In this document: in pieces, positions 4,016-37,473 of the stretch
Position numbering within the stretch: the stretch's first letter is position 1
Layout of the letters: each line of letters opens with the position of its first letter
Origin: a virus
Direction: 5' to 3' (one strand)
DNA: 41,024 nucleotides
UHGV virus genome: UHGV-0070243
Translations under genes and position numbers: made by a program
Notes under the pieces: generated by a model
The model's database searches: none
The model's input: only the letters and a program-made list of their open reading frames with translations
What the model was told of the DNA's origin: nothing

Positions 4016-4042
4016 CCCGCAAAATATTGCGGGCTTTTTTTT
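4016..4042. terminator. hairpin CCCGCAA-aata-TTGCGGG followed by T8 on the plus strand; abuts the tail spike stop codon
   Basis: 7-bp stem, 4-nt loop; T-run only on plus strand and A-run before it, so strand of action is ambiguous. Confidence 0.4.
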
Positions 4043-7000
4043 AACGTTCTTCCAGAGACTGAATCCGCTCTTTTATCTTATCCATTTCTCTGCGCTGCCA
4101 TGCTGCCTCGATATAGAATAAGAGATCAGGTCTGACCCCCCATCTAGATCCTGCTGGCGTTATTTCAACGCGCTCAATGATGTCTTCCATTACCATCACT
4201 GGATTATCATCCTCATCAACAATGATGCTCCCGTCATTATCAGTCAGTGGCATTTCCCTTTGGCCAGTAATGACGTCATCATATACTGCGGGATAATCGT
4301 CATAGCAAAGAAACGCATAGCGGCATGTTGTGCTTTCTTCTTCCATGAGTCCGTGAGAAATAAGAACATCACGAAGTTGCTGCGCGATTACACCATGATG
4401 TATCCTCGCCCCTTCTTCCCCCTTTATAGCGACAGCGTTCAGCCATTTATAAGCGATATACCTGACGTCACCCCAGGCATCCAGCAATGCTTCGTCAGGA
4501 GAGACCGGCTCTGTCTTTAATGTTCCGTCACTGGTAACCACAGGATTGGAGCCAAGATAAACTGTCGAGAACCTGTTTCCCGGACCACCAAGAGCATTTA
4601 CATTATCAAGATAAGGTTTAACATCTCCGTTCTCAAAAAGATGTTCGAGTGCGTTATATACCGCGCGACGTGGAGTACTGCTTCCGGAACCATGCAACGT
4701 TATCATTGCACCATCTGCTGAAGACGTTGTTTCACCGCCGCTAACGATTAATCTCTGAGCGGTAACATCATCAGACGGTACTTTCTTCGCAATAATGGCG
4801 TAATTACCCTCAAGTTTGACTTCCGCGCGAACTTGTCCTGATGTACCTGCATGGACAGTCAGTGACTGGACGGCAACATCATCTGTGAAATCAACGGGTA
4901 CAGGAACCGTCCTCACGCCTGACGTCGACATAAAAGTAGGAAGCGTTCTGTTAGGAGTGGCTCCGTAGACAAAATCCCTTGAAACAAATTCTTCCTGTTT
5001 AATTTTCACCCTGAAACAATACAAATCAGCCGGGTGACCATCGTGAACATAAGGATATTTTCTGTTGTTATCCCCTATGCTCCATGGGTTTAGAAAGTCT
5101 TCCCCACCGAAAATGTAGTACAGCCAGTTGTCTTTGATACAAACTGAACCAACACCAACCGCAGAGTTAACTATTCCGCCCTGATAAATCTGATCAGTAA
5201 CATTAACCCACTCTACATTATCCAGACTCCACTCATTGACGTTAACTCTGGTCATAAATGTTCTTGGATAATTTCCTGCATAACGGTTATCAGGTTCTCC
5301 TCCTTCCCACTCACCAAATGCGCGCTCACTGCCAAAAATAATCAGCTCATCGCCAACTTTGGCAAAAGGAAGGTTTGAGTGATGAACATTATTTGGGAAG
5401 CGAAGAGAATTCCATGATGTACCTAAATCAGAGCTTCTGTGCAATGAACTACCGGGTTGAGTACTTAATGTCCCCCTGGTCGTCAGATACAGAATGCCAT
5501 CATAATATTTTACACATGGCTCAGATGCATTCGCCTCATATTCTGCAGGTATGCGTCTGCGAACAAAGCTACCAGGAGAACCGAAAGCATCAGAGAAATA
5601 GAGTATCCCAAGCTCGCGTGGACCAATATCACCATTATGGTAGCCAACAGCAAAACTGTTATCGCTAATCGTCGCAAAACTGTGAATCTCAGTAACAGGA
5701 GTGCTTCCGTCAACAAAAGAAGGAATAGTTCCAAGACTGGTTTTTCTCCATGGTGACGAGTGAAATGATGTACCAAAACTCCAGTATCTACCCTCGTTAT
5801 TCTGATCCACATCCTGGGTATTTTGCGTCGTAACTGTAAAAGTATTTTTATCAATAACAGTAGTCACCGTCATATTCCCGGTAACACCTGTAACACCAGA
5901 GTTTGAGAAGTTGACAAAATCACCAGCAAATAATCCGTGATCAGTAATGCGAATATAAGCGACTTGCTGATTTGCTGCTTTCGTTATACCACCATAAACG
6001 CGAAGGCTGCGACTCATTGGGCGATCCCACAACTCTGCAACCTGCAGTTTATTTCCGCTCACGGTCCGCGTCTCAATTACAGCAAAAAGGCGATTTCTGA
6101 CAACCCCCATACTCATGCAGTGATAGTTAACTGTGGGATAGTTTTCATGTAAATCTGTAAGCCATTCCGGCGTTGTCCAGGTCTTCCCGTCATCTCCTGA
6201 GCGAACCCATGCAACATGGAGGTTATTTACACCATGGCGGTCTCCAGCCATAAAAGGCGCATAGATGACATTGTCATATACAAACGTTTTATCCTGCGTC
6301 CAGGCGTTGTACCACGGTGTATCTGTAATTTTAAATAACTCTCCCTGGATAAAATCTTCAGAAGCATAAAAAAGAGGCTGACCCGGTATTCTCTCAAATA
6401 AAAAACGAGCATTTTTAAATCGGCTGACATCCGGAAGAGTTGATACTTTAAAAGTAAGCCCTAATCCGTCAATTTTATAACCTGGAGATGAGGCTTCAAG
6501 GCACGCGCTTATTGCAGTGGAATCGTCATTTATACCATCACCAACAGCTCCAAAATCTTTGGGGCTAATAGCATCACGCATTTTATCCTGGAACGTTCGG
6601 TACACAGCCCCAGAACCATACTGAATAAACCAACCAAAACCACCAACAACCCCGGCGATTGCAGCATCGACATAATTACGCATTGAGCGATTATTTACAG
6701 CGTCCTGTTCAAGTGATGGATCTGCAAGGTTAGAAATTTTGTTTTGCTTTGCATCGTAATATTTTGCAAGCAAAGATGGTTTCATCAATGCACGTCTGAA
6801 CCACCCAAAACATTGCTGGATCAGCATCGTCAGGTAGTCAAAAGCATCTTCATGCACTTCGGGGAAAAATTTTCCCTGATTGCGAAGGTCTGTCTCCTGC
6901 ACTACATCAAGCACACGATCTATCGTAATTCGCCATCCAGTAGCAAGCGGCGACGGAAGAACCACAGAACCGCCACTATAAGTTCCCGCCCCAGTTACCG

Positions 7001-7160
7001 TATAACCGGTATCCAGAACCAATTCTGTTACGTTCCCGTTCAGGTCAGACACCTGAACAACCAGGTCTGATTTTCTGAAAATTCGAAAAGTATACGGAAA
7101 CGATGTCGTAACGCCGTTACCTGTGTATTCGTTGTGGTCAACTTCGGTTGAGACCGTCAT
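4041..7160 (-). CDS. tail fibre/tailspike (1039 aa): T7 gp17-like N-terminal virion-binding domain, Asp-box beta-propeller, C-terminal intramolecular chaperone (S74-like) domain; candidate endosialidase-type depolymerase
   Basis: N-terminus EYTGNGVTTSFPYTF...VVQV resembles the T7 tail-fibre N-domain (memory); two Asp-boxes SGDDGKTW and SSDLGTSW; C-terminal region LDNVNALGGPGNRFSTVYLGS...RWGVRPDLLFYIEAAWQRRE resembles the auto-cleaving chaperone of endosialidases and long tail fibres. Confidence 0.8.
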   Translation of the reverse strand: MTVSTEVDHNEYTGNGVTTSFPYTFRIFRKSDLVVQVSDLNGNVTELVLDTGYTVTGAGTYSGGSVVLPSPLATGWRITIDRVLDVVQETDLRNQGKFFPEVHEDAFDYLTMLIQQCFGWFRRALMKPSLLAKYYDAKQNKISNLADPSLEQDAVNNRSMRNYVDAAIAGVVGGFGWFIQYGSGAVYRTFQDKMRDAISPKDFGAVGDGINDDSTAISACLEASSPGYKIDGLGLTFKVSTLPDVSRFKNARFLFERIPGQPLFYASEDFIQGELFKITDTPWYNAWTQDKTFVYDNVIYAPFMAGDRHGVNNLHVAWVRSGDDGKTWTTPEWLTDLHENYPTVNYHCMSMGVVRNRLFAVIETRTVSGNKLQVAELWDRPMSRSLRVYGGITKAANQQVAYIRITDHGLFAGDFVNFSNSGVTGVTGNMTVTTVIDKNTFTVTTQNTQDVDQNNEGRYWSFGTSFHSSPWRKTSLGTIPSFVDGSTPVTEIHSFATISDNSFAVGYHNGDIGPRELGILYFSDAFGSPGSFVRRRIPAEYEANASEPCVKYYDGILYLTTRGTLSTQPGSSLHRSSDLGTSWNSLRFPNNVHHSNLPFAKVGDELIIFGSERAFGEWEGGEPDNRYAGNYPRTFMTRVNVNEWSLDNVEWVNVTDQIYQGGIVNSAVGVGSVCIKDNWLYYIFGGEDFLNPWSIGDNNRKYPYVHDGHPADLYCFRVKIKQEEFVSRDFVYGATPNRTLPTFMSTSGVRTVPVPVDFTDDVAVQSLTVHAGTSGQVRAEVKLEGNYAIIAKKVPSDDVTAQRLIVSGGETTSSADGAMITLHGSGSSTPRRAVYNALEHLFENGDVKPYLDNVNALGGPGNRFSTVYLGSNPVVTSDGTLKTEPVSPDEALLDAWGDVRYIAYKWLNAVAIKGEEGARIHHGVIAQQLRDVLISHGLMEEESTTCRYAFLCYDDYPAVYDDVITGQREMPLTDNDGSIIVDEDDNPVMVMEDIIERVEITPAGSRWGVRPDLLFYIEAAWQRREMDKIKERIQSLEER

Positions 7161-7264
7161 GTTAAATCTCCAGATAGTCGCAGCACCCGTTGCGCCGCAT
7201 ATCTGGTTATTCTATTACCTGAAAAACCACATATGGATAGAAAGACTGTGAATACGAATAGATA

Positions 7265-7279
7265 TTACCTTTCAGGTAA
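7265..7279. promoter_or_regulatory. operator-like palindrome TTACCtttcaGGTAA
   Basis: perfect inverted repeat TTACC-N5-GGTAA; same 16-mer ATTACCTTTCAGGTAA recurs at 27563-27578. Confidence 0.6.
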
Positions 7280-7318
7280 TTTGCAAAACGTGCTGGATAG
7301 CAAACAAATTATTTGCTA

Positions 7319-7334
7319 CTGTATAAATATACAG
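7319..7334. promoter_or_regulatory. LexA (SOS) box CTGTATAAATATACAG
   Basis: matches CTGT-N8-ACAG with AT-rich centre (TACTGTATAAATATACAGTT); 8 nt upstream of ATG at 7342. Confidence 0.7.
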
Positions 7335-7341
7335 TTATTGC

Positions 7342-7614
7342 ATGGAGAAGATTAAGATGCAGCAGTATCACTATCCACTGGAAGACGGATTTACCGAAAG
7401 GATTCACACGCCGGGAGGCGTCAGGTCACTGGTGGAGGGATCGCACTTGATGAAATTACTCCGGGATCTCGATAAGGATGGATTTAATGTCGATGGCCCA
7501 CTTGCCGAACTGACTGCACTGATTAACTACGTCACCAGCTCGCAGATGTCTATGCAGGATCTGCAAACACATCTCGACTATTGTGCCGAACAATTACGAA
7601 AACAAACCAGATAA
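7342..7614 (+). CDS. stand-alone antirepressor C-terminal (ANT/KilA-C-like) domain protein (90 aa), probably SOS-inducible
   Basis: aligns by eye with the shared C-terminal domain of both antirepressors (PL..G...P.GV..L.E.S.LM.LL..L..DG..V.G..AELT...Y....D.QTH..Y); LexA box immediately upstream. Confidence 0.55.
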   Translation: MEKIKMQQYHYPLEDGFTERIHTPGGVRSLVEGSHLMKLLRDLDKDGFNVDGPLAELTALINYVTSSQMSMQDLQTHLDYCAEQLRKQTR

Positions 7615-7645
7615 GGTTTGAAATTACCAAATGGAGTGCTTATAT

Positions 7646-7660
7646 TTACCTTTGCGGTAA
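7646..7660. promoter_or_regulatory. operator-like palindrome TTACCtttgcGGTAA (extended ATTTACC...GGTAAAT)
   Basis: perfect TTACC-N5-GGTAA in the structured leader upstream of the Bro-N antirepressor. Confidence 0.6.
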
Positions 7661-7926
7661 ATTTACATCGCACTCCTCTTGTGCCATAGTAATCGGGCAC
7701 TGGCAAAATCCAGTGCCGGGATTGGCGTCCCGGGTTACTACAGAGGCACATATGCCGCATAAGCGGTTTTTTTATGTGTAAAGCGCACCTATTCTATGGT
7801 GGGCTGTGTGGGGGCACCGAAAGGTGCGCCGGGTCCTTTGTAGCCGGTTACGCCAACCCTGCACAGTTCACCACCAACCGATTGGCGTCGGTAGTGGTGA
7901 TTAACCTAACTACAAAGGTGATCACT

Positions 7927-8613
7927 ATGACTGCTAACGTAACCCCATCTGTTTTTCATTTTGAATCAGAAGCAACCATTCGAGCCATTGTTATTGATGG
8001 AAATCCTTGGTTTGTTGCCAAAGACGTTATTAAAGCTCTTCAACTGACAAACCCCACTATGTCAATAAAATCTCTTGATGATGATGAAAGGGCTAAATTT
8101 AACTTAGGCCGTCAAGGCGAAACCAATATTATCAACGAGTCAGGCCTCTACACACTGATCCTCCGCTGCCGCGACGCAGTGACACCAGGCACTATCCCCT
8201 ACCGCTTTCGTAAATGGGTTACAGGTGAGGTTCTTCCTCAGATCCGCCGCACCGGAAGTTACATTAAAAACTCGCTCCCGCAGGAAGAACGCATAAAGAT
8301 GGTTGCCGACCAGGTAGCCAACGCCACAGCATCAGCAGTGATGCAGGCAATGAAGATAGAGAACAAAACCTACAGTGCCCCGCTGAAGCCCGGCTACCGC
8401 AGTCTGATTCATTCGCCGTCGGGTGTTCTCGGCCTGACGGAGCACTCACTGCTGATGAATCTGCTGAACCAGTTACAGGAAGACGGGCATGACGTATCGG
8501 GCGCGGCGGCGGAGCTGACCACCATGTTCTGCTACATCGTCGGTGTGAGCAAATGCCTGCGTGATATCCAGACGCACGCGGAGTACATCAACGACAAGGC
8601 TGGGTTCTTCTGA
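7927..8613 (+). CDS. antirepressor, Bro-N domain + ANT/KilA-C C-terminal domain (228 aa)
   Basis: Bro-N signature FHFESEATIRAIVIDGNPWFVAKDVIKAL...ESGLYTLILRCRDA...RFRKWVTGEVLPQIRRTGSY; RBS AAGGTGA; ORF 7774..8613 trimmed to ATG 7927. Confidence 0.8.
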   Translation: MTANVTPSVFHFESEATIRAIVIDGNPWFVAKDVIKALQLTNPTMSIKSLDDDERAKFNLGRQGETNIINESGLYTLILRCRDAVTPGTIPYRFRKWVTGEVLPQIRRTGSYIKNSLPQEERIKMVADQVANATASAVMQAMKIENKTYSAPLKPGYRSLIHSPSGVLGLTEHSLLMNLLNQLQEDGHDVSGAAAELTTMFCYIVGVSKCLRDIQTHAEYINDKAGFF

Positions 8614-8638
8614 CGGGCGGCGGCACAGGGATGTGCTT
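8380..8638 (+). repeat. left arm of about 258-bp inverted repeat (about 93 percent identical to 10099..10356 on the other strand)
   Basis: encodes the near-identical last 78 aa of both antirepressors plus about 25 bp of 3' flank (shared GGCACAGGGATGTGC). Confidence 0.8.
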
Positions 8639-8679
8639 CTGACATAATCATTTGCGGTGTGATGTAGATTCACGTAAGA

Positions 8680-8694
8680 TTACCTTAAAGGTAA
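8680..8694. promoter_or_regulatory. operator-like palindrome TTACCttaaaGGTAA
   Basis: perfect TTACC-N5-GGTAA 26 nt upstream of the 8721 start. Confidence 0.6.
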
Positions 8695-8720
8695 ACCATG
8701 GGTTTACATGAGGAGGAGAT

Positions 8721-8930
8721 ATGGGATTTTGGTTCGCTCGTACAAAAACGAGGGATAATGCACCCAGCCCTCAGGCAAAAAATGCAGAAGTTCCGGCGTC
8801 AGCGCAGGTTAACAAGCGTGGTGGAGTATATATCTCATCACAGCAAATTTCTGAGCTTCCTGAGGTTAAGGAGATGCGTCGTCTCGCTGCTGCAATTGTT
8901 AAACAGGATCTTGCCACTGTAAGGAAATAG
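8721..8930 (+). CDS. hypothetical small soluble protein (69 aa), first gene of two-gene cargo operon
   Basis: strong SD GAGGAGGAG 4 nt before ATG; stop TAG overlaps GTG start of next gene by 1 nt; preferred over alternative-frame ORF 8698..8922. Confidence 0.5.
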   Translation: MGFWFARTKTRDNAPSPQAKNAEVPASAQVNKRGGVYISSQQISELPEVKEMRRLAAAIVKQDLATVRK

Positions 8931-9796
8931 TGTTGTTAGCTCTTCTAATTATCCCCATTCTGGTTAGTGGTTATATTATGATAACCGCTAACCAGTATCA
9001 TTATTTCCGTTTATACCGACATGAAGGCCAGCTTCTTTATATGAAAGTAGCTGCATTAGGTACATATTGCCTTGTTGCATCAGTAATAATTGCAGCCGCT
9101 ATAAAATATAAATGGCCTGATTTTCACCTAGTTCACGATATGGTGGAAACTTTTAATGTAACATCAAAACCAGAAACAGATAGAATTTACATGTGGCTGC
9201 TTCTTCTCTCAGCCACATCCATTTGCTTCTCTTTGTGTTATGTGTCTGTTGTGTGGGTGAAAGATTTTCTTCTTGGTTGTTTTTATAAACGTGATATTTA
9301 CGAGCAAAAAACAGAGGCAATGAAGGCCAGAGTACTGCGAAAAACTTACTCGCAAGGTTCTTTAGACTTACTATTGCTTGATGCTATTGAATCGGATCCT
9401 AAACGACCAATGTTGATTACTTTATCATCAAACAAAGTGTATGTTGGAATAATAAATGGTTCTGGTGAACCAACGGAAAATCAGGGTCCGCATCAGCACA
9501 TATCTTTTGTTCCTTTAATGTCAGGATACAGGAACAAAGAAAACTTATCTGTCACATTCACTAATGCTTATCCAGGAGAAATACAGGTCAAGCGGACTGC
9601 AGCAATAAGAGGAATTAGCAGAAAGAAAGTGCCAGGACTTGAGATCATGGTGTCTATTGACGAAATAAGTTATATATCATGGTTTGATTTTGAAGTATAT
9701 AAAGCAACAAATAACAAAGTAGAATCCAGGGGGCACGTTATTCGTGTTACCAAAAATGGAAGAAATATATATCAAAGAAATAGCAAAAAAGAATAG
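8930..9796 (+). CDS. hypothetical membrane protein (288 aa): three or four N-terminal TM helices plus about 160-aa soluble C-terminal domain
   Basis: GTG start with RBS AAGGAAA; visibly AT-rich codon usage unlike flanking phage genes; followed by terminator. Confidence 0.6.
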   Translation: MLLALLIIPILVSGYIMITANQYHYFRLYRHEGQLLYMKVAALGTYCLVASVIIAAAIKYKWPDFHLVHDMVETFNVTSKPETDRIYMWLLLLSATSICFSLCYVSVVWVKDFLLGCFYKRDIYEQKTEAMKARVLRKTYSQGSLDLLLLDAIESDPKRPMLITLSSNKVYVGIINGSGEPTENQGPHQHISFVPLMSGYRNKENLSVTFTNAYPGEIQVKRTAAIRGISRKKVPGLEIMVSIDEISYISWFDFEVYKATNNKVESRGHVIRVTKNGRNIYQRNSKKE

Positions 9797-9817
9797 CCCG
9801 CGCTGCGGGCTTTTTTG
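9795..9817 (+). terminator. rho-independent terminator after membrane-protein gene
   Basis: AGCCCGC-gct-GCGGGCT followed by TTTTTTG. Confidence 0.7.
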
Positions 9818-9888
9818 TGGACGAAACAAAAGCCAGTGCTACACTCATTGACGCCACATTGAGGTGGCTTATAGATGGAAATTTCACA

Positions 9889-10050
9889 ATGAAAAAAGCA
9901 TTTGCTGCACTGTTCGTTTTGTTGTCTCTGGTAGCTTCAACTCAGGCCTTTGCCGGTCGTTGTCAGCACGACAGCGATACCGCCGCTGACGGCTCCCGCT
10001 GCGGTGGGCGTTCTGCGGATTCCCGCCCGGGCGGCGGTGGCATTCGTTAA
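9889..10050 (+). CDS. small secreted Cys-containing peptide (53 aa precursor)
   Basis: signal peptide MKKAFAALFVLLSLVASTQAFA then 31-aa Gly/Arg/Asp-rich region with 2 Cys; ORF 9817..10050 trimmed to ATG 9889; weak RBS. Confidence 0.4.
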   Translation: MKKAFAALFVLLSLVASTQAFAGRCQHDSDTAADGSRCGGRSADSRPGGGGIR

Positions 10051-10055
10051 AAACA

Positions 10056-10073
10056 AGGCCGCGAAAGCGGCCT
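10056..10073 (-). terminator. hairpin AGGCCGC-gaaa-GCGGCCT with U-run on the minus strand; terminator of ant
   Basis: 7-bp GC stem; minus-strand transcript continues into TGTTTTTAA; adjacent palindrome GTGACATGTCAC at 10074-10085. Confidence 0.55.
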
Positions 10074-10098
10074 GTGACATGTCACGATAGTTCCTTTT

Positions 10099-10356
10099 TG
10101 CACATCCCTGTGCCTCCGTTCTGTCAGAAGAACCCTGCCTTGTCATTGATGTACTCTGCGTGAGTCTGGATATCACGCAGGCATTTGCTCACACCAACGA
10201 TGTAGCAGAACATGGTGGTCAGCTCCGCCGCCGCGCCCGATACGTCATGCCCGTCGTCCTGCAACTGATTCAGCAGATTCATCAGCAATGAGTTCTCCGT
10301 CAGGCCGAGAACACCAGACGGCGAGTGAATCAGGCTGCGGTAGCCGGGCTTCAGCG
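10099..10356 (-). repeat. right arm of about 258-bp inverted repeat (partner of 8380..8638)
   Basis: reverse complement of 8380..8638 matches with a handful of substitutions. Confidence 0.8.
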
Positions 10357-11068
10357 GATAACCATAACATTTTGTCTGTGTTTTAATTGCCTCACGAAGC
10401 GCATCTAACATCTTGACTGCCACTTCATCATTCTCTGATGCAGATCCAGCAGGGAGATACTCCCCTTCAAGCGGAACCCGAGCAACAAGAGACAACGCTT
10501 CGGCGAATTGATCTTCATCAATTTCTTTGTACGAACAGCCAAAATGAGATTTCAGTGACGACCACATGGTGATCATCGCCTTAGCCTGTTTTTCTTTTGG
10601 CAGAGACTGACCGCGACTCATGACGAGTTGTTTAATGGCTTCCTGCTGTTCAGTGGTTATTTTACCCGGCAACGCCTTTTTAGCTTTGCGTGGGTTAACC
10701 ACATGGCCTTTAGTCCAGTACTCGTAGAGCACATCGTCACACTCTTCCTGATACTGGATTACCTTGTCGCGGATTTCAGGACGGACTTTGTTAGGGCTGA
10801 TGGTTTGCAACCAGCCAGCAAGTTTGCGAAGTGCCAAACAAATAATCTCACGGCGCTGTTCATCCCCAGGAAGCTGCATTGTGATTTTCACAATGCAGGT
10901 TTTAAACCGCTGCTTCATTTTCGTAAACTGTGAAGCCCAATCCATACCCATTCCCTCAACGATAGGCTTCATTGGTGTGTACGGTTCGCCGTTGTGATTG
11001 ACAACATAAAGTTCTACGCCGTGGAATGGCACGTTGATAGTAGATACCGCTGTTGCTATACTCGTCAT
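10124..11068 (-). CDS. ant: antirepressor Ant-like (314 aa): Ant N-terminal domain + shared ANT/KilA-C C-terminal domain
   Basis: N-terminus VPFHGVELYVVNHNGEPYTPMKPIVEGMGMDW and KVRPEIRDKVIQYQEECDDVLYEYW recalled as P22 Ant-like; downstream of arc-like gene as in P22 immI. Confidence 0.7.
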   Translation of the reverse strand: MTSIATAVSTINVPFHGVELYVVNHNGEPYTPMKPIVEGMGMDWASQFTKMKQRFKTCIVKITMQLPGDEQRREIICLALRKLAGWLQTISPNKVRPEIRDKVIQYQEECDDVLYEYWTKGHVVNPRKAKKALPGKITTEQQEAIKQLVMSRGQSLPKEKQAKAMITMWSSLKSHFGCSYKEIDEDQFAEALSLVARVPLEGEYLPAGSASENDEVAVKMLDALREAIKTQTKCYGYPLKPGYRSLIHSPSGVLGLTENSLLMNLLNQLQDDGHDVSGAAAELTTMFCYIVGVSKCLRDIQTHAEYINDKAGFF

Positions 11069-11140
11069 GTCGTTAATTCCTATACGTAGTTTTACGATAC
11101 TGAAGCCCTGACGGTCTGGCCACCGTTGGGCTTCGCTGTT

Positions 11141-11308
11141 TTATGCCACGCTATTCTTCTCACCAGTGAGTCCATACACTTTCCTCAGCTGATAGATAAT
11201 CTCTGTATTGAACTTTCGGCATTCTTTTTCGCCATTTCTTTCAATAGCTAACTTCACATCGTCCGGAAAACGAACTCGTCGTTGACACATCTCTTTTGCT
11301 TTTTGCAT
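11141..11308 (-). CDS. arc: Arc-like ribbon-helix-helix repressor (55 aa)
   Basis: MQKAKEMCQRRVRFPDDVKLAIERNGEKECRKFNTEIIYQLRKV resembles P22 Arc (beta-strand then NSEIYQR helix); RBS AAGGAG 9 nt upstream; ORF 11141..11344 trimmed. Confidence 0.65.
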   Translation of the reverse strand: MQKAKEMCQRRVRFPDDVKLAIERNGEKECRKFNTEIIYQLRKVYGLTGEKNSVA

Positions 11309-11428
11309 TTCATATCTCCTTAGCCCCACCGTGGGGCAAAACAATTGTCACACCGTGCGTCATTGATGTCAAGCACACGGTGAGGCATACTTCAATCATT
11401 GCAAGTAACTCAATATTTGGTGAAGAAC

Positions 11429-11860
11429 ATGAGCAGAGAAGATCCACAACTAAGGATCAGACTTCCCGTTGAAGTAAAAGAAAAAATAGAAATTTCTGCA
11501 AAAGCCAATAAGCGATCAATGAACGCTGAAATAGTACAACGTCTTGACACCAGCTTTCTGAAAGATATTCATGAAGATGACGTAATTTCTGCTTATGAAG
11601 CAAAAATTATTGCAAACAATGCACGGCATGAAATATCAAATATTATTTTCAAAAGAACCTTTAATGAAATTAATAAGAAAATAACACTTGGACATACAAG
11701 TTTTTATATAAACCTTAATGACCTTGAACTGGAATCACTTGCAGATAATGATTACCAGATCATCTTTGAAAAAACATTTAATAAGCTCAATGAACTAGGT
11801 TACATCATCTGTGAAAACTCATGGGATGCAGATGGTTTTGGAATTGAAATACCTGAATAG
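11429..11860 (+). CDS. mnt: Mnt-like ribbon-helix-helix repressor with about 60-aa C-terminal extension (143 aa)
   Basis: MSREDPQLRIRLPVEVKEKIEISAKANKRSMNAEIVQRL resembles P22 Mnt N-terminus (DDPHFNFRMPMEV...ANGRSMNSELLQIV); divergent from arc; AT-rich. Confidence 0.65.
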   Translation: MSREDPQLRIRLPVEVKEKIEISAKANKRSMNAEIVQRLDTSFLKDIHEDDVISAYEAKIIANNARHEISNIIFKRTFNEINKKITLGHTSFYINLNDLELESLADNDYQIIFEKTFNKLNELGYIICENSWDADGFGIEIPE

Positions 11861-11950
11861 GAAGAACAAAAGGCGTGTACATATTACACGTCTTTAATAC
11901 AATTGAAAAACGCCACATTACTGATGTATGTTACAACAAGGAGCGATATT

Positions 11951-12514
11951 TTGAAAACCATATCTATATTAAAGGTTGCATTAGGCGTCGCTATTATTTT
12001 GACTCTCTCAATATTGTTTTATTTTTACCACAAAAAAACAGCTATTGCTCTTGATGGTCACGCGGCAAACTCATTTTTCTCAGAGTACATAGTGCCGCTA
12101 TCAGGAAGCGGTATAACAAATAAATATACTGACTATGACATCAAATATGGAATTGATGATGGGGAGACTATTGTATTACATGTAATCATTAAAAACCTAA
12201 TGACAGTAAATAAAAATACAGACTTCAACGATAAAAATACAATACATCACAACAACAGCAAAACATTAATTTCTTATAGTAGCAACATCTATACGGATAA
12301 ATACCTAAAATACATCTCAGAAGATACAATAAAAGCAACCAGCGAAAAGTTAAAAAACATATATTGTGCATCCGGCAGTTTTCACAAATTATCGCCGCAA
12401 GAGCGTTTATTCTACGAAGCAAGAAAACAACGTAAGTCAATAATATTACATTATTATGCTGATTCAGGGGAGTCACTCATATTTAATATTGGGGTTTCCC
12501 CTGAATCATGCTAA
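11951..12514 (+). CDS. hypothetical membrane-anchored protein (about 188 aa) in the position P22 sieA occupies; candidate superinfection-exclusion/abortive-infection protein
   Basis: TTG start with perfect SD AAGGAG 7 nt upstream (alternative ATG 11924 lacks an RBS); one TM helix ISILKVALGVAIILTLSILFYFY; very AT-rich; sits between mnt and the core-protein operon. Confidence 0.5.
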   Translation: MKTISILKVALGVAIILTLSILFYFYHKKTAIALDGHAANSFFSEYIVPLSGSGITNKYTDYDIKYGIDDGETIVLHVIIKNLMTVNKNTDFNDKNTIHHNNSKTLISYSSNIYTDKYLKYISEDTIKATSEKLKNIYCASGSFHKLSPQERLFYEARKQRKSIILHYYADSGESLIFNIGVSPESC

Positions 12515-23529: not shown

Positions 23530-23580
23530 CTTCTTTCTCCATTAGTGGGTCTGTTACGACCCACAGGTTAATAACAGGCG

Positions 23581-27900: not shown

Positions 27901-27977
27901 GTGGCATTAGCTCAGTTGGACAGAGCAACCGCCTTCTAAGCGGTTGGTCGCAGGTTCGAATACTGCATGCCACGCCA
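27901..27977 (+). tRNA. tRNA-Arg (anticodon UCU), 77 nt, with a G:A mismatch in the T-stem
   Basis: acceptor GTGGCAT/ATGCCAC, discriminator G, CCA encoded; D-arm GCTC/GAGC; anticodon stem ACCGC/GCGGT with loop CTTCTAA; T-arm GCAGG-TTCGAAT-ACTGC; overall very similar to E. coli argU (memory). Confidence 0.8.
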
Positions 27978-36200: not shown

Positions 36201-36280
36201 GGTAAGCCCTGTTATTAGTATTGGGATTACGGTTATTTTGTGCTGACACAAAAAAAAGATCAACCAGATTTGGTTTTTTA

Positions 36281-36295
36281 TTACCTTTGAGGTAC
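36281..36295. promoter_or_regulatory. operator-like site TTACCtttgaGGTAc between the cro terminator and the next gene
   Basis: one mismatch in right arm. Confidence 0.5.
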
Positions 36296-36300
36296 GAATA

Positions 36301-36328
36301 GATATGAAAAGACCGCCGGGTGGCGGTC
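36301..36328 (-). terminator. rho-independent terminator directly after the cro-like gene (tR1-like)
   Basis: GACCGCC-accc-GGCGGTC on the minus strand followed by TTTTCATATC. Confidence 0.65.
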
Positions 36329-36350
36329 TACAGAGGGTTGTGGCTGGATA

Positions 36351-36581
36351 TCATGAGTAGAAGAAGTATGCCAGTTCTGCTTTTGAGCGCAGCCATTGTC
36401 TTGTTTTACAGGCTTTAAAAAGCCCATTCATCAATACTTTACCTGGCATTTTTCGCTTACCTGTTAAGTGAGTCTGGATATAGTGACTCGTCGTTCCGGC
36501 TTCCTGTGCGAAGGCTTCACGCTCATCCGGAGTAAGTGCAAGCCAGTGCTTTTTGAAATCGAAATGTCCGTTATCGCTCAT
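36351..36581 (-). CDS. Cro-like HTH regulator (76 aa)
   Basis: HTH-like segment AFAQEAGTTSHYIQTHLTGKRKMP; first gene transcribed leftward from the divergent operator region. Confidence 0.55.
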   Translation of the reverse strand: MSDNGHFDFKKHWLALTPDEREAFAQEAGTTSHYIQTHLTGKRKMPGKVLMNGLFKACKTRQWLRSKAELAYFFYS

Positions 36582-36617
36582 AGCTATTGCCTGATATTTA
36601 TTTCAGATAATAAATAT

Positions 36618-36680
36618 TCACCCATAAGGTAACAAAAATCAAGGATAGTTACCTATGAGGTGCATTTACCTGTTGGGTAA
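36618..36680. promoter_or_regulatory. OR-like tripartite operator between divergent cro-like and repressor genes
   Basis: three sites: TcACCcataaGGTAA (36618-36632), TTACCtatgaGGTgc (36649-36663), TTACCtgttgGGTAA (36666-36680). Confidence 0.65.
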
Positions 36681-36735
36681 TATTGCTTTAAATTGAATCA
36701 TCTACTGATTCATATATGAGGCGATTTTCCAGAAA

Positions 36736-37320
36736 ATGAAAAGTATCCAGGACGTCCGCAGGCAAAATCTCAACGACTTGATCGACCGTGAATTCAATGG
36801 TGTTCAGACGCGGATGGCAGAAAAACTTGGAACTCAGGCAAATCTGGTAAACCGCTGGGCTCTTGGCAAGAAGGTTATCGGCGACCAGGTTGCGCGAAAA
36901 ATTGAAGCTGCCGCCAATAAACCCCGTAACTGGCTTGATATCGATCGCTCGCTTTCTCAGGAAGGTTTTCAGCCTGTCGGCCCAAGCGACATTGGTCAGC
37001 TGGCGGCTCACAACCTGGAACGCTGGATGAGCGAAAGCCGCGACCTTTCAACACAGGGAAAACTTCACCGCGCATCCGGCGTCGCCCAGGTGACAATCAG
37101 CCGCCTGTTAAACAATGAGGTCAGCGTTTCCATTTCCACCCTGGAGAATGTTGCATCCGCATTCGGGCGTCACGGCTATGAATTACTGATTCACCCGCAC
37201 GACCCTGCGACTATCAACTATGACCGCTCGCGCTACGCATTGTTACCCGAAACAGAGAAGGCAAAGATCGAAAGTTACATTGAATTTGTCATCAGCCAGA
37301 ACGAAAAAAACAAACAATAA
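36736..37320 (+). CDS. tandem-HTH (two XRE-type domains) repressor-like protein (194 aa), no S24 peptidase domain
   Basis: two HTH segments (GVQTRMAEKLGTQANLVNRWALGKK and HRASGVAQVTISRLLNNEV); cI-like position between OR-like and OL-like operator clusters; own terminator. Confidence 0.6.
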   Translation: MKSIQDVRRQNLNDLIDREFNGVQTRMAEKLGTQANLVNRWALGKKVIGDQVARKIEAAANKPRNWLDIDRSLSQEGFQPVGPSDIGQLAAHNLERWMSESRDLSTQGKLHRASGVAQVTISRLLNNEVSVSISTLENVASAFGRHGYELLIHPHDPATINYDRSRYALLPETEKAKIESYIEFVISQNEKNKQ

Positions 37321-37340
37321 AATCATATTTTTCAGTAAGT

Positions 37341-37367
37341 AAGCCGCCTCATGGCGGCTTTTTTATT
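37341..37367 (+). terminator. rho-independent terminator after repressor gene
   Basis: AAGCCGCC-tcat-GGCGGCTT + TTTTATT. Confidence 0.75.
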
Positions 37368-37377
37368 GCCAGCAAGA

Positions 37378-37454
37378 TTACCTTATGGGTAATTTTTTTA
37401 ACTCATATCTATTGACATCAAACCAGATACGCATAATCATTACCTCAACGGTAA
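37378..37454. promoter_or_regulatory. OL-like operator pair flanking a PL-like promoter
   Basis: TTACCttatgGGTAA (37378-37392), TTGACA at 37412-37417, TTACCtcaacGGTAA (37440-37454), extra half-site GGTAAC at 37463-37468. Confidence 0.6.
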
Positions 37455-37473
37455 CAGACCGAGGTAACAAATT

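Follow-up and report, generated by a model that had tools for sequence, protein, structure and literature searches.

The stretch of DNA analyzed here, 41,024 nucleotides (nt) of the virus genome UHGV-0070243 (hereafter the window), contains a small gene, ant, that is preceded by a LexA (SOS) box and is divergent from the tailspike gene. This locus is very probably the SOS-sensing arm of a prophage lysis-lysogeny switch, orthologous to the Ant/Rep/LexA system of the Salmonella phage SPC32H. At the level of sequence, it carries the features by which an SPC32H-type switch can be recognized, including a candidate promoter that overlaps the box, and from these features we infer LexA occupancy of the box, the exact promoter hexamers, and binding of the antirepressor Ant to the repressor Rep in the window phage. 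The window itself is an epsilon15/phiV10-like (Uetakevirus) phage of Escherichia coli whose relatives are podoviruses; 640 bases around the locus are 94 to 98% identical to those of phages phiV10, vB_EcoP_ZX5, phiv142-3, HEMP4, and TL-2011b, and 78% identical to those of Enterobacter phage Tyrion.

The box, TACTGTATAAATATACAGTT, differs from the 20-nt E. coli LexA consensus, TACTGTATATATATACAGTA, at 2 positions, and it is the sole site in the window with three or fewer mismatches to that consensus. When the window was shuffled with its dinucleotide composition preserved, 0 of 100 shuffles yielded any site at that threshold. The box is thus not a chance match, and the near-consensus SOS box proposed in a first-pass annotation of this DNA (2 of 20 positions mismatched) is borne out. 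Its CTGT-N8-ACAG core (7319-7334) is perfect. The same core also occurs at 23551 and 28093, both times without the AT-rich spacer and flanks; with 0.59 such cores expected, we judged these two core-only matches to be chance occurrences and rejected them as LexA sites.

The box is also conserved. We aligned the regions upstream of ant for 9 and then 11 sequences, and the arms of the box were kept in 11 relatives whose Ant proteins range from 64 to 100% identity, with the ACAGT arm and the T-TG-N-TA(C/T)-TGT arm invariant. The box of the window aligns with that of SPC32H. A comparison of SPC32H with its relative SPC32N revealed one difference in the region upstream of ant, a C-to-A change in the ACAG arm at the position equivalent to C7332 of the window. 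SPC32N is said, in work by Kim and Ryu from 2013, to be a constitutively lytic sibling of SPC32H that differs from it by two nucleotides genome-wide, and the C-to-A change in the box reportedly derepresses ant and makes the phage lytic.

The first-pass annotation had placed the box 8 nt upstream of a 90-amino-acid (aa) open reading frame (ORF). The order of the two is correct and the ORF, 7342..7614, is present and encodes 90 aa when read from ATG 7342, although the box ends 5 nt before that ATG rather than 8, and the start itself does not hold. Four of the 11 relatives have ACG or CG in place of ATG 7342, and we rejected this codon as a start because it is unconserved, whereas ATG 7357 is invariant in all 11 aligned upstream regions. 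The ant coding sequence of SPC32H is annotated from the ATG that aligns with 7357, and nearly all of the 136 Ant homologues we found are 85 to 86 aa long. Because ATG 7357 and its Shine-Dalgarno sequence are invariant, the homologues are of this length, and the SPC32H start is aligned, we take the product to be 85 aa, which puts the end of the box 20 nt before the true start.

Comparison with characterized proteins gives the product a clear identity. Ant matches chain E of PDB entry 5D50, "Anti-repressor protein," with a phmmer E value of 4.4e-47 (query residues 7-89, chain residues 3-85), and BLASTP against SPC32H Ant found 73 of 83 residues identical (88%); the GenBank entry for the SPC32H orthologue reads "ant: anti-repressor protein." The best-fitting PHROG is PHROG 450, labeled "unknown function" (E = 3e-48), and Ant also matches PHROG 15539 and has a weaker match to the anti-repressor family PHROG 1760. 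The claim that the ORF aligns with the C termini of both large antirepressors of the window likewise stood up (40% identity over 82 aa with 7774..8613, E = 3e-16; 44% over 81 aa with 10124..11068 on the minus strand, E = 7e-17). A hidden Markov model search for ANT or KilA-C domains, which had been proposed as a check, came out negative: hmmscan of the 90-aa ORF against Pfam at E ≤ 1 returned only a spurious, sub-threshold DUF724 match and no ANT, KilA-C, Bro-N, or P22_AR_N, and NCBIfam has no family for small Ant or for either large Ant. Small Ant is a stand-alone protein with no Pfam or NCBIfam domain. Because no model in either collection covers its family, the gene is labeled "hypothetical protein," as it is in phiV10, epsilon15, ZX5, nearly all of the 136 homologues, and the listed genome records of E. 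coli.

The presumed target of Ant is Rep, which matches chain A of PDB 5D50, "Repressor," over residues 1-190 (E = 4.1e-42) and whose SPC32H counterpart is annotated "rep." The two Reps are 42.7% identical, with 54% identity between their N-terminal domains and 38.5% between their C-terminal domains, and Rep of the window is of a different immunity type from SPC32H Rep. Pfam detected only HTH_3 and a weak YdaS-like helix-turn-helix (HTH) in Rep and no Peptidase_S24, in agreement with the earlier statement that the main repressor lacks a LexA-like peptidase domain. According to the 2016 structure paper on the SPC32H complex, the C-terminal domain of Rep is reportedly the part contacted by Ant.

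The palindrome ATTACC-N5-GGTAAT, which we presume to be the Rep operator, has 15 copies in the window at two or fewer mismatches versus 1.3 expected. They span 3375-37455, include sites at 7264, 7645, 8679, 27563, 28180, 31113/31131, 34279/34341, 36280, 36665, and 37377/37439, and cluster around rep/cro (36280-37455). The motif is also found around SPC32H rep and, in the same place as in the window, upstream of SPC32H ant, and the homologous site of epsilon15 is annotated "protein_bind: repressor; lysogeny." In the window, the copy upstream of ant is flanked by the divergently oriented promoters of the tailspike gene and ant, and its ATTACC-N5-GGTAA is invariant in the 11 relatives. An 11-nt perfect inverted repeat also involves this site, in that 7214-7224 pairs with the right arm of the operator (7270-7280).

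Taken feature by feature, the window and SPC32H correspond closely. Both belong to the genus Uetakevirus, and they share an Ant of about the same length encoded beside the tailspike gene, a full-length Rep homologue without S24, the operator motif, and a LexA box, Shine-Dalgarno sequence, and start codon at equal aligned positions. They differ in that the window phage has E. coli as its host, its Ant is one residue shorter, its Rep is of the other immunity type, and the spacer of its box is ATAAATAT where SPC32H has ATGTTTAT. In addition, SPC32H lacks the two extra Ant-domain proteins that the window carries in its downstream accessory region. The SPC32H switch itself is described by Kim and Ryu (2013, J Virol 87:11775) and Kim et al. 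(2016, PNAS 113:E2480), with structures under PDB 5D50 and 5D4Z.

The location of ant is also conserved. In SPC32H, epsilon15, phiV10, and Tyrion, the gene borders the virion structural genes and is transcribed away from the tailspike gene, and it has the same position in BUCT554, BUCT711, and four more distant metagenome or genome contigs. Within E. coli, the ant locus is present in 529 of 5,426 complete genomes (~10%).

A candidate promoter of ant can be placed by conservation. In the 11 relatives, CTGG (7293-7296) and A7299 are invariant, and TGGATA lies 17 nt from TACTGT or TATATG, as counted in the window and in the BUCT711-type Klebsiella sequence. The best conserved candidate promoter would therefore have its -10 element inside the LexA box. 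Other candidates, TTGCAA/TTGCTA as the -35 and TATACA/TATAAA as the -10, were rejected because, across the 11 aligned sequences, they were not conserved or not properly spaced. At the other end of the gene, a hairpin that overlaps the ant stop codon forms in the RNA fold, with no T-run after it on the plus strand, and the epsilon15 record places a rho-independent terminator at the equivalent site, on the other strand; the hairpin looks like a terminator for leftward transcription only.

On the basis of these features, the switch would work as follows. In a lysogen, host LexA bound to the box would keep ant silent because the box covers the probable -10 element and the transcription start. DNA damage activates RecA, and LexA then cleaves itself; the ant promoter would fire, and the 85-aa Ant would be translated from ATG 7357 via GGAG. 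The homologous complex that has been solved suggests that Ant, as a tetramer, would bind two Rep dimers and break the DNA-binding Rep tetramer; a paper that summarizes SPC32H describes this action for that phage (PMC9638917). Rep, which has no autocleavage domain, would then leave its ATTACC-N5-GGTAAT operators, and lytic genes would be expressed. The indirect logic that the first-pass annotation had put forward, from LexA through a small antirepressor to the repressor, is thus supported by the homology of Ant and Rep to those of SPC32H and by the conserved position of the box.

Published observations point the same way. LexA-controlled Ant proteins of Salmonella prophages are treated in a review that cites Kim and Ryu (2013) among such systems (PMC7380047). 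In a recent preprint (bioRxiv 10.64898/2026.05.26.727859), two prophages of the phiV10 species in human E. coli isolates are reported to be induced 21- and 47-fold by a microcin, which the title and conclusion of that preprint class as DNA damaging. We regard this induction as independent support for an SOS switch.

Several considerations weigh against the SOS-sensing interpretation. A scan for the sigma-70 consensus detected no rightward promoter in front of ant, either in the window or in SPC32H, and TGGATA-17-TACTGT matches the consensus at only 7 of 12 positions, which is why the scan did not report it. The presumed Rep operator 36 nt upstream of the box could also influence the ant promoter. 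Binding of Ant to Rep in the window phage is an extrapolation because Rep shares just 42% identity with its SPC32H counterpart (38.5% for the C-terminal domain). Small Ant may not be the sole route to induction, since two further antirepressors share its C-terminal domain. Finally, overexpression of the Bro-N type anti-repressor ORF4 of the close relative ZX5, which corresponds to 7927..8613 in position and domain, lowered lysogeny and brought prophage titres down ~1000-fold (PMC9782041).

These last two points also feed the best-surviving alternative, which we consider unlikely: small Ant would be LexA controlled but redundant or a modulator, with induction proceeding mainly via the large Bro-N::Ant-C and P22_AR_N::Ant-C proteins and small Ant possibly co-assembling with the homologous C-terminal domains of these. 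The Ant domain is indeed common to all three proteins, 17 columns of it being invariant, and the C-terminal domain of the large Ants also matches 5D50 chain E (E = 9e-15). Given that SPC32H Ant acts as a tetramer according to PMC9638917, mixed oligomers are conceivable, and overexpressed ZX5 ORF4 did reduce prophage titres, as noted above. However, SPC32H, epsilon15, and other Salmonella members have small Ant only, with one match per genome; small Ant is universally conserved and is alone among the Ants in having a LexA box, whereas the large Ants belong to an accessory region that varies, and the phiV10 copy is split into two ORFs.

How Ant and Rep have diverged relative to one another bears on a second alternative. 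In the E. coli group, Ant and Rep are 98 to 100% and 99% identical to those of the window, respectively (100% and 99.5% in ZX5), and the corresponding values are 86% and 78% in Tyrion, 78% and 75% in BUCT554, 84 to 88% and 42% in the Salmonella group, and 58 to 63% and 45% in the Klebsiella group. This mismatch across groups implies reassortment between ant and the immunity region. Cross-induction would be allowed if Ant tolerates very divergent Reps; the alternative is that its binding differs in detail here. It could therefore be argued that small Ant mainly acts in trans on the repressors of heteroimmune Uetakevirus prophages and not on the resident Rep, given that Ant is so much better conserved between the E. 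coli and Salmonella groups than the Reps, that it must either tolerate very different Reps or be matched to only one of them, and that cross-talk between antirepressors is documented for Gifsy and Fels-2 prophages (PMC3121763 and PMC7380047). We consider this improbable. In the phage collection, the 35 records with Ant homologues and the 36 Uetakevirus-like records with Rep homologues are essentially the same genomes, with one of each per genome, and both immunity groups keep the operator motif in the same place in front of ant. Moreover, a sole SOS sensor blind to its own repressor would leave the phage uninducible, yet prophages of the phiV10 type are induced by a microcin described as DNA damaging in the preprint cited above.

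Least credible is the proposal that the box does not function as a LexA site or controls the divergent tailspike gene instead of ant: it does lie in a 196-nt intergenic region shared with that gene, and the consensus scan found no strong rightward promoter, but it is 20 nt from the ant start versus 156 nt from the tailspike start (7160), the leftward promoter-like blocks (TAGAAT/TTCATA in SPC32H) are more than 80 nt away from it, and it is unique, statistically unexpected, and conserved across genera.

Conserved blocks in that intergenic region, ATTCTATTACC and ATATG(A/G)AT (7205-7240), resemble the -10 and -35 elements of a leftward tailspike promoter. In SPC32H, these putative elements read TTCATA-17-TAGAAT. 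An operator half-site adjoins the candidate -10 element.

The first-pass annotation had called the small protein "Tum-like," and this comparison holds for function and promoter geometry but not for sequence. Phage 186 Tum and the Gifsy and Fels-2 systems follow the same logic, in which a non-cleavable repressor is inactivated by a LexA-repressed antirepressor. The p95 promoter of phage 186, which drives tum, is annotated with a -35 of TTCACA, an 18-nt spacer, and a -10 of TACTGT that coincides with bases 1 to 6 of the LexA site TACTGTATGTTTATACAGTA, the same geometry as that of the candidate ant promoter. Tum, however, is a 146-aa protein annotated as DinI related, and a single BLASTP comparison of small Ant with Tum gave 16.5 bits (E = 0.06), i.e., no detectable similarity. 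The relation between Ant and Tum is one of analogy and not homology. We note that the review PMC7380047 calls such Ants "homologous to Tum," for which BLASTP gives no support in the case of the SPC32H-type Ant.

A second point of comparison is offered by the immI regions of P22 (mnt, arc, ant, and sar RNA) and P1/P7 (c4 RNA and icd-ant), secondary immunity modules that likewise deliver an antirepressor against the primary repressor, and elements of both types physically adjoin small ant in the window (Table 1). Those regions are controlled by ribbon-helix-helix repressors or antisense RNAs and not by LexA, and small Ant lacks P22_AR_N, Bro-N, and Pfam ANT domains.

Table 1. Coordinates of the ant locus, the repressor gene, and the adjoining antirepressor cassettes in the window
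Feature	Position	Strand	Remarks
Presumed Rep operator, palindrome ATTACCTTTCAGGTAAT	7264-7280		Perfect; 36 nt upstream of LexA box
Candidate -35 of ant promoter, TGGATA	7294-7299	+	Inferred from conservation
LexA (SOS) box, TACTGTATAAATATACAGTT	7317-7336		Consensus match, conservation
Candidate -10 of ant promoter, TACTGT	7317-7322	+	Left arm of LexA box
Shine-Dalgarno sequence, GGAG	7344-7347	+	9 nt before ATG 7357; invariant in 11/11 upstream regions
ant	7357..7614 (stop codon included)	+	85-aa SPC32H-type small antirepressor
Hairpin, CAAACCAGATAAGGTTTG	7603-7620		Overlaps ant stop codon; minus-strand terminator-like site
Promoter-like TTTACA-17-CATAGT	7662-7690	+	Would start transcription at approximately the first base of isrK
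c4-a1b1 C4-target element	7684-7736	+	Rfam, 44.1 bits, just below gathering score
isrK RNA	7697-7773	+	Rfam, 74.7 bits; terminator 7754-7775
Bro-N::Ant-C protein	7774..8613	+	Likely real start ATG 7927 (7927..8613)
C4 antisense RNA	7792-7878	+	Rfam, 79.5 bits
P22_AR_N::Ant-C protein	10124..11068	-	Pfam
sar RNA	11070-11137	Antisense to start of P22_AR_N protein	Rfam, 45.2 bits
Possible Arc-like 55-aa ORF	11141..11308	-	By eye only; no Pfam match
Mnt-like ORF, Arc domain	11399..11860	Divergent	PF03869, E = 1e-14
rep	36736..37320	+	194-aa two-domain HTH repressor, presumed Ant target

Directly downstream of small ant, the segment 7645-8613 has the makeup of a P1 immI/Gifsy-1 IsrK-style cassette, and farther on, 10124-11860 has that of a P22 immI-style cassette. 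From 7161 to 11860, three antirepressor modules are thus stacked, with control elements that are LexA, P1 immI-like, and P22 immI-like. The Pfam matches to Bro-N and P22_AR_N are confined to the N-terminal parts of the two large antirepressors, and the C-terminal ~85 residues of these proteins (8359-8613 and 10124-10381) are almost identical to each other and 37 to 39% identical to small Ant, forming a domain of ~80 aa common to all three. Within the phage collection, both the free and the fused forms of this domain occur only in the Uetakevirus-like records that also carry a Rep homologue. The promoter-like site in front of isrK adjoins an operator-like palindrome (7645-7661), which suggests that Rep may control the second (Bro-N) module and that a feed-forward step is possible.

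These observations raise the possibility, which we put forward tentatively, that the 85-aa Ant fold is a portable Rep-targeting module deployed three times in this phage under three kinds of input, namely, alone under DNA damage via the LexA box, fused to Bro-N under isrK/C4, and fused to P22_AR_N under Mnt-like/sar. If all three Ants act on the same Rep, the region would constitute a multi-input induction hub, and feed-forward would be possible in that small Ant would free Rep operators and the second Ant would be derepressed. The conservation of Ant (88%) relative to the Reps (42%) would, if the idea is correct, further imply cross-induction between heteroimmune Uetakevirus prophages. Both the triple-module architecture and this asymmetry in conservation are worth a note.

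Other features of the window concern its host and its cargo. The tailspike gene (4041-7160, minus strand) encodes a full endosialidase, with End_N_terminal, End_beta_propel, End_beta_barrel, End_tail_spike, and Peptidase_S74 chaperone domains. Endosialidase tailspikes mark phages of K1-capsulated E. coli, and the window phage probably targets such strains. Between and beside the antirepressor cassettes lie ORFs (8930-9796, 9817-10050, and 11903-12514) with 31 to 38% G+C content and no Pfam match, among them one for a hydrophobic 288-aa protein and one of 77 aa with an N terminus that is signal-peptide-like by eye; these ORFs are probably accessory genes ("morons"). The phage also bears a tRNA-Arg with anticodon TCT (27901-27977, plus strand).

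The switch described here is already known, and what we report is an E. coli copy of the SPC32H system, a correct but ordinary finding that adds nothing new in mechanism because the switch has been solved genetically and structurally in SPC32H. Its practical value lies in the annotation of an Ant family that no model covers. A 2022 study of ZX5 credited antirepression to the Bro-N protein ORF4, which alone was tested, and mentioned neither LexA nor SPC32H (PMC9782041). That study overlooked the LexA-controlled small ant, which is 100% identical in ZX5. The LexA-Ant-Rep circuit accounts for the response of prophages of the phiV10 type to bacteriocins and DNA-damaging agents in the gut, and mutation of C7332 should make such a phage obligately lytic, which would be useful for phage engineering.

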